From: an uncultured archaeon
GTDB lineage: Archaea; Iainarchaeota; Iainarchaeia; Iainarchaeales; GCA-2688035
Direction of reading: 5' to 3'
DNA: 64,000 bases
Assembly: GCA_964640195.1 (NCBI GenBank)
Contig: CAZXIC010000005.1
Coordinates: 4,996-68,995 of the forward strand
The notes beneath the pieces were generated by a model that was not told where the DNA came from, ran no database searches, and saw only the letters and a program-made list of their open reading frames with translations. Each line of letters begins with the position of its first letter. Position 1 is the stretch's first letter. Both the position numbers and the translations under genes were made by a program. Below, in pieces: positions 9,796-12,801 of the stretch.

Positions 9796-12700
9796 ATGGT
9801 CAAACTTAAGCGCCTTGTTTTGCGCAACTTCAAGTCGTTTAAAAAAGCGGAGATTCCAATCAGCAGGGGCTTTACCTGCATTGTCGGCGGCAACGGCTGC
9901 GGCAAGACAAACATACTGGATGCGCTGCTTTTCGTTATGGGAATCACCTCCCTGAAAGCCCTCAGGGCAGGGAAGCTCACAGAGCTGGTGAACAACAATA
10001 CCGTGGAAAACTACGCAAAGGTTGAGCTGACGCTGGGCGACGGTGACAACAACTACACCATACAGAGGATGATTGACAAGCAGGGAAAGTGCGTTTACAG
10101 GCTTGACGGCCAAAGAAAAACACTGGGGGAAATTTCTTCGCTGCTGCTTGAGCTTGGCTTGAGGCCTGATGGCCATAACATCGTTGCACAGGGCGATGTC
10201 ACAAGGGTCATTGAAATGAACCCGGAGCAGAGGAGGCAGATAATAGACGAAACAGCAGGATTGCAGGAATTTGATGAGAAAAAGGAAGAAGCGCTTAAGA
10301 ACCTGGACAAGGTTGACGTAAAGCTGCGCAATGCAAACATCGTTCTGCAGGAAAGGGAAAATTATCTGGCTGAACTGCAGGAGGAAAAAAAAGCAGCAGT
10401 GCTGTTCAAGCAGCTGCAGGAAGAGCGCAAAAGGGCAAAGGCAACAGTGCTGACCTGTGAGATTTGGAAAATAAACAAGTCGCTCAGGGAAGGCGGCAAG
10501 AGGATTTCTGGGCTTGGCTCGGAGAGGGAAGCAGAGCAGCAGCAGGCAGAGCAGGCAGCTGCAGAGGCAGAGAAACTGAAAGCAGAGTCAAACAAGCTCG
10601 GTGAGGAAATGCTGGGCAGCAGCGAAAATACCTACGCAACTGTCGGCGCAAGGCTTGAGGAGGCAAAAGCCGAAAAGAGCCAGCTGCTTGAAAGGATTGA
10701 GAGGAAACAGGAGCTGGTTGCAAGAAACAACAGGAGGCTTGAAGAGAACAAGGGAGGCGTAGCAGGCATTGAGGCTGAGGTCAGGGCAGAAGAGCAGAGG
10801 ATTGCACAGATTTGCAGCGAACTGCCTGGGCTGCGCAACGAACTGCAATCTGTTGAGGAAAAGAAGGCGCTGCTTGAAAAAAGGCTGAAGAAAAGCGAGC
10901 AGTCCCTGCAGGAAAGGAACGCTGCCGAGGAAAGGCTTTCGCTGCTGCTTGCTGAACTCAATGAGCGGAGAACGAAGGCAGTAAGCGCCCTGAACGTGCT
11001 GCAGAACGAGATGGCAATGAAAAAGGAGCTGCTGCAGCAACTGCTGCTGGAACAGGAACAGCTGGCTGCAAAGCTGGATGAAAGGGACAAAAGCAGGCAA
11101 TTGTTGAATACGCTGCACAGGCAGTTTGAAAACCCTGCCCGGCAGCTTTCTGCAACTGAGAAGCAGAACATTTCCTGCCTGGATGAGCTGAAAGCAGTGG
11201 AGGCGGAAAAAAGGGGCTTGGCTGAGAGCATTGCAGTGCTTGGGAAAAGCGTTGCAATTTGCCCTGTCTGCGAAAGCGAGCTGCGGAAGCAGAGAAAGGA
11301 GGATTTGTTGAAGAGGAAGCAATCCGCATTAAAGGGGCTTGCAGCCAGGGAGGCAGAGCTTGGGGCAAGGAAAGCACAGCTTCAGAAGAAGGAAAAGGAG
11401 TTAAGGGAAACTGTGGAAAAGGAAAAAGAGCTGGTTTTCCAGCTGAGGGACAGCGGTGAATTGAAGGAAAGGTCTGCGGCGTGCAGAAAAAAAACAGGGG
11501 AAATAAAGGCTTTTCTTGGGGAAAACAGCGTTGAAAAGAAATCCGGGGAAATAGGTGCAATTGAGGCAGAGATAAAAGGGCAAAAGGCGGAAATGGATAG
11601 AATTGCAGGGCAGAGAAGGCAGTTCACCGAAGGCGCTGCGCTGGAGCAATTCAGGCACGCAAGCAACAAGGCGCTTGAACTGCGCCAACGGCTGCATGAG
11701 CTGGAGCAGGAGAAGCAGGCAATCGCTGGAAAGGCAATCGGACAGCTGCAAAAGCAGAAGCAAAGCATGCTTTCAGAAATAGAGGCACTCAAAACGGAAA
11801 ACAAGGAAACTGTTGCGGAGATTGAGGAAACAAAGGAGGAACTGCAGAAAACCGGCGTAAGGATTGATGAGCTCGAAAAGGAAATGGCGGATGCTGAAAA
11901 GCGCAACAAAAAAACAGCGGAGAAAAAAAAACAATTGGATGCAAAAATAGAGAAGCTCGGCAGCGAGGAAAAAAGCCACGGGCAGAAGTTAAGAACCCTG
12001 GAGCAGGAGGAAAACGCCCTGCGGATTGAAAAAAGTAGGCAAGAGGTGCGCTTGGCTGACATTCAGGAAGAAGCGAGCCAGTTTGAAGGCGTTGGAACAA
12101 TTGAAAAATTCACCCCTAAGCAGCTCGGCGACAGAATTGCTGAAATAGACAAAAAGATTCAGCAGATGGGCGCAATCAACATGCGGGCAATTGAATCGTT
12201 CGACCAGCTGGCTGCCGAGGTGCAGGATGTAAGGAAAAAAGTGGAACAGCTGGAGCGGGAAAGGCAGGCTGTGCTGCAGATGATTGAGAAGATTGACTTG
12301 AGAAGAAAAAACATCTTCATGCGCTGCTTTGAAGCGTTGAACAAAAACTTTTCAAGCCTTTTTTTCAGGCTGTTCAGTGGAGAAGGCAGGCTCAGCCTGA
12401 GCGACCCGCAGCAGCCCCTCGATAGCGGGCTGCTGATTGAGGCAAAGCACAAGGGCGAGAGCATCCAGAACATTGACAGCATGTCCGGAGGGGAGAAAAC
12501 ACTGACAGCGCTTGCATTCCTGTTTGCAATCCAGCTGTATGAGCCGGCTCCCTTTTATGTTTTCGATGAGGCAGATGCTGCCTTGGACAAGGAGAACTCA
12601 ATGAAGATGGTTAAAATAATCAAGGACGTCAGCAGGCAGAGCCAGTTTATTGCAATAACCCACAACGACCCCCTGATTCAGAAGGCAGACCAAATAATCG

Positions 12701-12801
12701 GCGTAACATTGAACAAGCAGAGGAGCAGCGTTATTGGATTGAAGCTGAGGGAAAAGATTGCTGCCGAAGAGGCAATAGCAAAGCAGCCTGTTGTTTCCTA
12801 A
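9796..12801 (+). CDS. smc: SMC-type ABC ATPase with coiled-coil arms and a central CxxC (zinc-hook-like) motif instead of a hinge
   Basis: N-terminal head '[34 protein letters not shown]'. SMC-specific neck '[47 protein letters not shown]'. C-terminal signature '[36 protein letters not shown]' plus the H-loop 'ITHN'. About 650 aa of heptad-like E/K/L/Q sequence lie between the heads. 'CPVC' is at nt 11260-11271, residue ~489 of 1001. Confidence 0.85.
   Translation: [1001 protein letters not shown]

Follow-up and report, generated by a model that had tools for sequence, protein, structure and literature searches.

A probable condensin-like Smc of Diapherotrites/Iainarchaeota in which a Rad50-type CPxC hook takes the place of the hinge

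We found a gene in an uncultured archaeon that probably encodes a condensin-like Smc of the Diapherotrites/Iainarchaeota (DPANN) in which the hinge has been replaced by a zinc hook of the Rad50 type, with the motif CPxC. We put the probability of this interpretation at about 78%. We refer to the protein as Smc(Zh). It has a bona fide SMC head in which every ATPase motif is invariant, and the hinge, a domain of ~125-170 aa, is missing. All members of a monophyletic family share this fixed hook architecture, and their genes reside within a conserved ribosomal-protein/FtsZ neighbourhood. The hinge is regarded as a defining and important part of SMC proteins. It holds the dimer together constitutively, binds DNA and has been proposed as an entry gate for DNA in cohesin. 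Our search of the literature found no description of a zinc hook in any naturally occurring SMC.

Results

The Smc(Zh) gene was found in a contiguous stretch of 64,000 nucleotides (the window; contig CAZXIC010000005.1, positions 4,996 to 68,995), and all coordinates are those of the window. The coding sequence (9796..12801, plus strand, from the list of open reading frames) is complete. It opens with an ATG at 9796, encodes 1001 aa and ends with a stop codon at 12799-12801. Translation could also begin at a TTG at 9781, but the homologues start at the ATG. The product is identical (100%) to the database protein P0001. An initial annotation, made from the sequence by itself, had given the length as ~1001 aa, or ~170 aa below that of a canonical SMC, and this was correct.

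The two halves of the head are at the ends of the protein. The N-terminal half (aa 1-156; 9796..10263, plus strand) was delimited by alignment to Pyrococcus Smc heads, and the C-terminal half (aa 861-1001; 12376..12798, plus strand) by alignments and a check of the translation. All elements of a split ABC-ATPase head are present: Walker A (GGNGCGKT, aa 31-38; nt 9886-9909, plus strand, translation checked), the R-loop arginine, the Q-loop, the LSGGE signature (SGGEK at aa 897-901), Walker B and the D-loop (aa 920-931), and the H-loop (H956). In 66 aligned homologues, G31, N33, G36, K37, R57 and Q132 were invariant, as were S897, G898, G899, E900, D924, E925, D927 and H956 in the C-terminal half and R146, A154, G155, E158, F159, K162 and E165 in the neck. 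The Walker A, neck and signature/D-loop motifs quoted in the initial annotation were all found in the translation.

Profiles and PDB matches placed the head nearer to SMC than to Rad50, RecN, RecF or ASRP, and in a tree it grouped with SMCs of DPANN archaea. The Pfam model SMC_N matched Smc(Zh) with E=1.4e-53. The score on the NCBIfam model TIGR02169 (SMC_prok_A) was 539.9 bits, compared to 118.9 on the ASRP model NF045487, 115 on the best Rad50 model and 61 on RecN. The cutoffs of the Rad50 models are 700-1087 bits; that is, all of their scores (≤115) were far below threshold. In a search of the PDB, Pyrococcus Smc heads were matched at 2e-96 (5xei) and Rad50 at 1e-15. The D-loop, FDEADAALD, is that of an SMC; a Rad50-type D-loop would read DEPTxxLD. 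Thus, the head is SMC-type and not Rad50-type, as first proposed. The proposal that it aligns almost residue for residue with Pyrococcus SMC went too far, since head identity is ~50%, but the likeness to SMC is clear. The further suggestion, that the protein might belong to a recently noted archaeal SMC-related family, did not hold for ASRP (ClsN/Sph): the score of 118.9 bits is well under the cutoff of 300, and the protein has 1001 aa compared to the 593 positions of the model.

In a neighbour-joining (not maximum-likelihood) tree of head domains, built from 326 columns, the Smc(Zh) family was one clade in 200 of 200 bootstraps. The clade was placed beside the Micrarchaeota SMC with 78% support, among SMCs of DPANN archaea. 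The outgroups of the tree, like the controls for the hinge described below, were drawn from canonical SMCs found when the family alignment was searched as a profile against GTDB species-representative genomes. The matches listed in that search (at least 600) were all canonical SMCs, with no members of the Smc(Zh) family among them.

The center of the protein has no hinge. The Pfam model SMC_hinge (PF06470) did not match Smc(Zh) even at E≤10. In contrast, it found hinges with E-values of 1e-19 to 1e-35 in seven further SMCs from archaea, of which five carry DPANN names. The AlphaFold2 (AF2) model of Smc(Zh) has continuous helices from aa 157-482 and 498-860 with a 15-residue loop between them, and neither this full model nor a model of the apex only had a globular domain in the center. 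The apex-only model was a helical hairpin (pLDDT 91.6). These results support the earlier statement that no hinge is visible. In addition, all of the best 120 homologues (120/120) are without a hinge.

Alignments located the gap. The TIGR02169 alignment was in two stretches, and the second restarted at aa 496, equivalent to profile position 668, just beyond the hinge. With MAFFT, residues ~506-629 of a Micrarchaeota SMC were mostly unmatched (about 100 aa in four blocks) between aa 473 and 502 of Smc(Zh).

The arms on either side of the loop have near-canonical length. There are two, of ~330 aa each in the AF2 model, in agreement with the long intramolecular antiparallel coiled coil of an SMC (~300-350 aa per strand). 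The neck and ascending arm (aa 157-482; 10264..11241, plus strand) were modeled as helices 157-443 and 447-482. The descending arm (aa 498-860; 11287..12375, plus strand) has joint-like breaks, with helices at 498-550, 553-576, 579-611, 614-762, 774-790 and 798-860. A Foldseek search with the full model gave chains of SMC, Smc5/6 and condensin; the TM-scores were poor owing to the long rod. In a Diapherotrites variant of 772 aa, both arms are shorter by ~110 aa.

Smc(Zh) is encoded among housekeeping genes. The neighbourhood (L10/L1/L11/Spt5/SecE/FtsZ) has the same gene order in the window and in 7 of 7 other loci, and there were no signatures of defence islands or mobile elements around smc in any of these eight. 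Directly upstream is a gene for a 270-aa polytopic membrane protein (8875..9687, plus strand; GPDPase_memb/DUF7847-like by Pfam). A counterpart of 252-268 aa is 5-55 bp before the SMC gene in 7 of 7 other loci; the distance in the window is 108 bp. A functional tie of this membrane protein to Smc(Zh) is unproven. Downstream, and convergent with the SMC gene, is a gene for a 784-aa membrane protein with a Lon_C domain (13261..15615, minus strand; Pfam), which we give as context. A Lon_C-domain gene is also downstream in 7 of 7 other loci. The right flank beyond the window has glycosylation genes only.

We found no gene for ScpA or ScpB within about 10 kb of smc in the window or in the 7 other Diapherotrites loci (phmmer and HMM searches of all open reading frames). 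In at least 13 other archaeal loci, scpA immediately follows smc. In the three Micrarchaeota loci that encode a canonical SMC, scpA is not next to it either. We considered a conserved neighbour of 275 aa (7583-8410, minus strand) as a divergent kleisin. An orthologue of this protein (locus L004) matched the ScpA HMM (20 loci) with E=2.8, and a comparison of the neighbour family (four sequences) to ScpA with hhalign gave a probability of 0.1%. We therefore rejected the kleisin reading. The 275-aa protein has a winged-helix-like N-terminus and no Pfam match.

It is possible, but rather unlikely, that Smc(Zh) is an accessory SMC paralogue (for example, in repair or defence) and that a canonical hinge-bearing Smc is encoded elsewhere in the same genome. 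The lack of an adjoining scpA is consistent with this, as is a TIGR02169 score (539.9 bits) below the equivalog cutoff of 729.4. Archaea with hook-bearing relatives of SMC (ASRP/ClsN) are also known to have other systems alongside them (PMC9389158). However, such a drop in score is what one would expect if the hinge columns are lost, and a canonical Micrarchaeota SMC is likewise under the cutoff (685 bits). The Smc(Zh) heads share 35-49% identity with the heads of canonical SMCs, and their nearest groups in the tree are the DPANN SMCs expected from the species tree. The fixed housekeeping neighbourhood and the uniform lack of a hinge in the best 120 homologues also argue against an accessory role. 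A query with the hinge only gave no protein named as Diapherotrites, a weak test with 6 matches in all.

In place of the hinge, Smc(Zh) has a CPxC motif that resembles the zinc hook of Rad50. The motif, CPVC (aa 489-492; nt 11260-11271, plus strand, from the translation), is at 0.49 of the length of the protein, close to the midpoint as originally noted. It is in the apex loop (aa 483-497; 11242..11286, plus strand), which was non-helical in both AF2 models and is the proposed zinc-coordinating hook. Of 120 homologues, which are 37-58% identical to Smc(Zh), 119 have a CPxC, and it is the sole CxxC in those proteins; the exception is P0108 (924 aa). C489, P490 and C492 were invariant in 66 aligned homologues, and the coiled coil around them is highly variable. 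The distance of the motif from the N-terminus was 487-491 aa in 104 of 109 full-length members. This degree of conservation in orthologues argues against a chance occurrence and supports the initial reading of CPVC as hook-like.

The similarity to Rad50 extends beyond the cysteines. The flanks have the consensus CPVC(D/E)SxLxxxKKxxL, which agrees with that of Rad50 hooks. We built a profile (A2) from 69 aa around the motif, and positions 7-69 (~63 residues) aligned to Rad50 hooks; the corresponding segment of Smc(Zh) is aa 468-530 (11197..11385, plus strand, translation checked). The profile matched the hook structures of Pyrococcus furiosus Rad50 with E=6e-10 (1L8D) and 1e-9 (6ZFF). The PDB matches that followed were RING fingers, at 7e-4 or weaker, aligned on the CPxC only. 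Among 1.84 billion representative proteins, the best matches outside the family were of the Rad50 type (4e-11 to 1e-8) and were interleaved with family members. Few of them are named, and those are mostly from DPANN archaea (Micrarchaeia, Aenigmarchaeota). These Rad50-type proteins scored 50-59 bits, compared to 42 for the Pyrococcus hook. The Pfam model of the Rad50 hook (PF04423), run on the single Smc(Zh) sequence, gave 13.1 bits, under the threshold of 24.3; that is, the expected match to the hook was obtained with the family profile and not with the single sequence. Foldseek with the apex model ranked 1L8D first, a non-significant match (E=0.084).

Judged by sequence, a Rad50-type CPxC hook joins the arms of Smc(Zh) at the apex of the coiled coil, and it is predicted to bind zinc. 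A single CxxC provides two ligands and there is no other conserved Cys or His near the apex, so metal binding would require dimerisation.

There is a small chance that the CPxC instead forms a redox-sensitive disulfide or stabilises a turn, on a rod that is monomeric or dimerised in some other way, and that Smc(Zh) is simply hinge-less, like SMCs of marine Actinobacteria. Hinge-less SMCs without a CxxC do exist (PMC12153180), P0108 is without the motif, and the Foldseek match to the Rad50 hook was not significant. However, a motif of that kind would not account well for the absolute invariance of Cys, Pro and Cys amid a fast-evolving coiled coil, for the strict conservation of the distance between head and motif, or for a significant similarity to Rad50 hooks over ~63 residues. 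In addition, an SMC ring that entraps DNA requires a second dimerisation interface, for which Smc(Zh) has no candidate other than the hook.

It is very improbable that Smc(Zh) is a Rad50/SbcC-type double-strand-break repair ATPase with a head that resembles SMC: the central CxxC hook, its Rad50-like flanks and weak matches to a Rad50 NCBIfam model (115 bits) and to SbcC_Walker_B (E=0.0075) are outweighed by the scores and D-loop described above, by the separate Rad50-type proteins of DPANN archaea (about 755-880 aa, with 226-261 bits on Rad50 models), and by the absence of an Mre11/SbcD-type gene among the window open reading frames scanned with Pfam and in the 7 related loci.

Discussion

Our results indicate that Smc(Zh) is most likely a condensin-like Smc with a hook for a hinge. 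Presumably, two protomers, with two cysteines each, would hold one tetrahedral Zn2+ as in Rad50, and the shared Zn2+ would make a constitutive homodimer linked at the tips of the arms. The heads, bridged by a kleisin, would then engage and disengage with ATP, and, as in Smc-ScpA(B), this would drive the entrapment of DNA and the extrusion of loops. The hook may have come from a rad50 gene within the same broad lineage, through a domain swap that kept the reading frame. We consider the chances about even for the broader proposal that the sole chromosome-organising SMC complex of Diapherotrites/Iainarchaeota is hinge-free and that its hook was captured in this way from a DPANN-type Rad50. More speculatively, because the hooks of SMC and Rad50 are so similar, there could be mixed, zinc-mediated pairing between the two proteins that couples break repair to chromosome organisation.

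If Smc(Zh) is the sole SMC, then it is a natural and long-kept experiment indicating that an SMC can do without functions specific to the hinge, among them DNA binding and opening to let DNA through. It would favour models that assign the essential mechanics to the arms and heads and not to the hinge. The only other evidence that we found for function of a hinge-free SMC comes from an engineered Bacillus subtilis chimera under laboratory conditions, and an archaeal lineage that has kept a hook-joined SMC would be its natural, long-term counterpart. The family would also document that the two great branches of the superfamily have exchanged domains, and its compact proteins could serve as a natural system in structural and single-molecule studies. 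Most homologues are annotated as 'AAA family ATPase'. With this label, and with scores under the equivalog cutoff, SMC could be wrongly called absent from such genomes.

Smc(Zh) combines features of several known systems. Like the Smc of Smc-ScpA(B) (Pyrococcus; PDB 5XEI, 5XNS, 4I99), it has the head, neck, ATPase motifs, long arms and a chromosomal housekeeping context. It differs in being ~170 aa shorter, with no hinge, a CPxC apex, no adjacent scpA and a score below the equivalog cutoff. With the Rad50/SbcC hook (PF04423) it has in common the CPxC at the apex and the consensus of the flanks. In contrast to Rad50/SbcC, its head is of the SMC type, its arms are longer than those of the Rad50-type proteins of ~755-800 aa, and there is no Mre11 gene nearby.

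The ASRP proteins (ClsN/coalescin, Sph1/Sph2) are archaeal members of the SMC superfamily with a zinc-hook motif at the apex of the coiled coil (PMC9389158). The 593 positions of the ASRP model indicate that they are far shorter than Smc(Zh), and the head of Smc(Zh) is distinct (119 bits on NF045487, 540 on SMC). A cluster of 'hinge-less' SMCs from marine Actinobacteria also has SMC heads and arms and no hinge, and is explicitly without CXXC (Environ Microbiome 2025, PMC12153180). Smc(Zh) is archaeal, and in it the hinge appears to have been replaced by a hook and not merely lost.

The closest parallel is an engineered protein. B. subtilis grew normally with an Smc whose hinge had been swapped for the hook of P. 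furiosus Rad50, and this chimera still depended on the length of its arms to function (Burmann et al. 2017, PMC5344682). The reverse swap, Rad50 with the MukB hinge, was functional in fission yeast (PMC6969161). The B. subtilis chimera has the same plan as the archaeal protein (a Rad50 hook for the hinge, on the head and arms of an SMC), and its dependence on arm length parallels the tight conservation of arm length in archaeal Smc(Zh). The chimera is a bacterial laboratory construct, whereas archaeal Smc(Zh) is probably a natural, ancient and lineage-wide replacement.

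The gene and its SMC-type head

We found that the gene at window positions 9796-12801 (+ strand) encodes a protein, Smc(Zh), that combines the head of an SMC with a zinc-hook-type apex. The open reading frame begins with ATG and consists of 1001 codons plus a stop, and its product is identical to a database protein (P0001) from an 84-kb NCBI contig. The motifs cited in the initial annotation, including the neck sequence, were all located in the translation where it had placed them. They include Walker A (GGNGCGKT, aa 31-38), the signature and Walker B/D-loop (aa 897-931), and CPVC (aa 489-492; nt 11260-11271, + strand; 0.49 of the length). 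Homologues with a named source carry the label Candidatus Diapherotrites or Candidatus Iainarchaeum, both DPANN archaea. The genes around Smc(Zh) are housekeeping genes of archaea, encoding the ribosomal proteins L10, L1 and L11 as well as Spt5, FtsZ, TBP and AglB.

The head is SMC-type, as had been proposed. Pfam matched SMC_N at 1.4e-53 and SbcC_Walker_B at only 0.0075. Among NCBIfam models, Smc(Zh) scored 540 bits on TIGR02169 and 438 bits on TIGR02168, compared to 115 on the best Rad50 model and 61 on RecN. A sequence search of the PDB gave Pyrococcus Smc heads at 2e-96 (~50% identity) and Rad50 at 1e-15. Membership in the archaea-specific SMC-related proteins (ASRP; ClsN/Sph), which had been suggested, did not hold up: the ASRP model gave 119 bits. 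All of the catalytic residues (K37, R57, Q132, S897-G-G-E900, D924, E925, D927 and H956) were invariant in an alignment of 66 sequences, and this conservation suggests that the SMC ATPase is active and has been maintained by purifying selection.

We compared the heads of 26 members of the Smc(Zh) family to those of 22 canonical SMCs in a neighbour-joining tree (326 columns). The family was monophyletic in 200 of 200 bootstraps. Closest to it was a Micrarchaeota clade (grouping 78%), followed by an Aenigmatarchaeota SMC. This branching broadly agrees with vertical inheritance of the gene within DPANN archaea.

The hinge is missing

The hinge was reported to be missing, and our analyses agree with that. 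The SMC hinge family (PF06470) had no match in Smc(Zh) even at E<=10, whereas the same profile recognised the hinges of seven further archaeal SMCs (one from Aenigmatarchaeota, three from Micrarchaeota, one from Woesearchaeota and two from unnamed archaea), with E-values of 1e-19 to 1e-35. The TIGR02169 match fell into two stretches, the second restarting at aa 496, which corresponds to profile position 668, just beyond the hinge. When a Micrarchaeota SMC was aligned with Smc(Zh) using MAFFT, its residues ~506-629 were mostly unpaired (about 100 aa in four blocks), falling between aa 473 and 502 of Smc(Zh). In an AlphaFold2 model based on the 66-sequence alignment (mean pLDDT 77), helices 157-482 and 498-860 are connected by a 15-residue loop. 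Modelled alone, aa 436-548 formed a plain helical hairpin with CPVC in a 7-residue tip (pLDDT 91.6).

The apex resembles a Rad50 zinc hook

The interpretation of CPVC as a zinc-hook-type motif is supported by its conservation and by its relatives. A single CPxC, the only CxxC in each protein, was present in 119 of the 120 best homologues (37-58% identity, almost all 985-1025 aa). The coiled coil beside the hook is highly variable, yet C489, P490 and C492 are invariant; the surrounding consensus is L-K-K-x-x-(S/A)-x-C-P-(V/T/I)-C-(D/E)-S-x-L-x-x-x-K-K-x-x-L. We searched a 69-position family profile of this region against all PDB sequences. The zinc hooks of Pyrococcus furiosus Rad50 were matched across 63 residues (1L8D, E=6e-10; 6ZFF, E=1e-9); weaker matches, to RING fingers, were at 7e-4 or worse and covered CPxC alone.

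Among 1.84 billion representative proteins, 408 matched the hook profile at E<=0.001. The best matches outside the family were proteins of ~755-900 aa whose central hooks include CPVCDSELNDKHKEELINKK, CPVCDSKLSEEKKKTLIEKK and CPVCESDLPLAKKKNLMKLK and whose D-loops are of the Rad50 type (DEPTxxLD). Three of these were scanned and scored 226-261 bits on Rad50 NCBIfam models versus 69-81 on SMC models. Those with a named source were from Micrarchaeia and Aenigmarchaeota, and one was labelled Omnitrophica. Their hooks scored 50-59 bits, overlapping the true Smc(Zh) family and above the Pyrococcus hook (42 bits). Judged by these profile matches, the Smc(Zh) apex appears to descend from a Rad50 hook, and the most plausible route is capture from the rad50 gene of a related lineage. 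It is possible that the likeness arose by convergence under shared structural constraints.

The only other invariant cysteine in Smc(Zh), C844, is in the head, and there is no other conserved cysteine or histidine near the apex. Because one CxxC provides two ligands, tetrahedral coordination of zinc would need two protomers, as in Rad50. We infer that the hook binds zinc and that Smc(Zh) dimerizes through it. In a structural comparison, 1L8D was the top-ranked match to the apex model, at a score that was not significant (E=0.084). Taken as a whole, the reading of an SMC with a Rad50-type hook that dimerizes through zinc has a probability of nearly 0.8 in our estimation. The initial annotation, which saw an SMC head with a hook in place of the hinge, described a real feature, and its interpretation is supported.

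Arm length and variants

The arm length of Smc(Zh) is tightly constrained. The distance from the N-terminus to the hook was 487-491 residues in 104 of 109 full-length family members. This constancy fits experiments indicating that the Smc arm is a length-tuned functional unit even with a hook in place of the hinge (PMC5344682). One homologue, P0219 (Candidatus Diapherotrites archaeon, 446-kb contig), has 772 aa with CPVC at aa 376, about 110 residues fewer in each arm than the main family. Its head is that of an SMC (N-terminal head 57% identical; 484 bits on TIGR02169).

Several other variants were seen. Of the 120 closest homologues, P0108 alone (924 aa, from a 13-kb contig of a MAG labelled 'archaeon') has no CPxC, and about 77 aa around its apex are gone; it could be a true hook-less variant or an assembly artefact. 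Intein or homing-endonuclease domains were found in three family members (P0100, P0116 and P0119; 1198-1548 aa) and in two Rad50-type proteins retrieved by the hook profile (P0145 and P0150; 1189-1322 aa), in the latter with the intein right behind the Walker A P-loop. An Aenigmatarchaeota locus (L006) has a natural 'mini-SMC' of 823 aa (9989-12460, +) that retains the canonical hinge (PF06470 at aa 353-465) and has arms about half as long as usual; its gene belongs to a classic smc-scpA-scpB operon (scpA, 12603-13286; scpB, 13408-13905).

Gene neighbourhood

One arrangement was shared by the window and all seven other Diapherotrites loci compared, a set that spans the family and includes contigs of 0.3-1.2 Mb. 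Smc(Zh) is preceded by a ~260-aa polytopic membrane protein (GPDPase_memb/DUF7847-like; window 8875-9687, +), whose gene lies on the same strand 5-110 bp upstream, and followed by a convergent gene for a Lon_C membrane protein (13261-15615, -; ~700-840 aa across loci). Counterparts of both neighbours were named at loci L001, L004, L005 and L086-L088. Their adjacency persists although the SMCs are only 37-58% identical; the neighbours may be functionally linked to the SMC, or the gene order may merely be frozen. Beyond Lon_C, L10 and L1 were present in every locus, and L11, Spt5, SecE and FtsZ in the window and four others. This is a core chromosomal position rather than a defence island or mobile element.

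We found no ScpA or ScpB within about 10 kb of Smc(Zh), in the window or in related loci. In contrast, scpA is immediately 3' of smc in at least 13 other archaeal loci, often with scpB. A canonical, hinge-bearing SMC likewise has no scpA beside it at three Micrarchaeota loci, and thus the lack of a nearby scpA does not indicate genome-wide absence. Smc(Zh) is slightly more likely than not to be the only housekeeping SMC in these organisms. A conserved 275-aa protein (7583-8410, -), encoded near the SMC in the window and six of the seven other loci, matches no Pfam family, and its N-terminus is winged-helix-like; it was rejected as a divergent kleisin (hhalign probability 0.1%).

Other features of the window are a 949-aa HerA/DUF87-type ATPase (11-2860, +) with a possible TrmB-like winged helix at its C-terminus and no adjoining Mre11, Rad50 or NurA; large DUF87 ATPases are also upstream at three related loci (L001, L005 and L087). 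Positions 32001-40000 have a GC content of about 0.435, compared to about 0.50 elsewhere, and encode KsgA, DUF655, Rpb4-like, TBP and NYN-domain proteins. There is a PolB-exonuclease-like fragment of 206 aa at 34468-35088, and a 1482-aa open reading frame (38553-43001, +) had no Pfam match at E<=0.001.

Comparison with known systems

Our results indicate that an SMC bearing a zinc-hook-type apex occurs naturally and is fixed in a DPANN lineage. Smc(Zh) is Smc-like but is without the hinge, one of the defining features of SMCs. It shares the hook, a defining feature of Rad50, but was found with neither a Rad50 head nor an Mre11 partner. ASRP/ClsN proteins also bear hooks, but they are short and their heads are distinct (PMC9389158). 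Hinge-less SMCs were described in marine Actinobacteria in a 2025 study and are stated to be without a CXXC motif (PMC12153180). In a full-text literature search of incomplete coverage, we came across no report of a zinc hook in a naturally occurring SMC. The reverse swap, a MukB hinge on Rad50, is functional in fission yeast (PMC6969161). The closest precedent for Smc(Zh) is artificial: Bacillus subtilis Smc that was given the P. furiosus Rad50 hook supported normal growth (PMC5344682).
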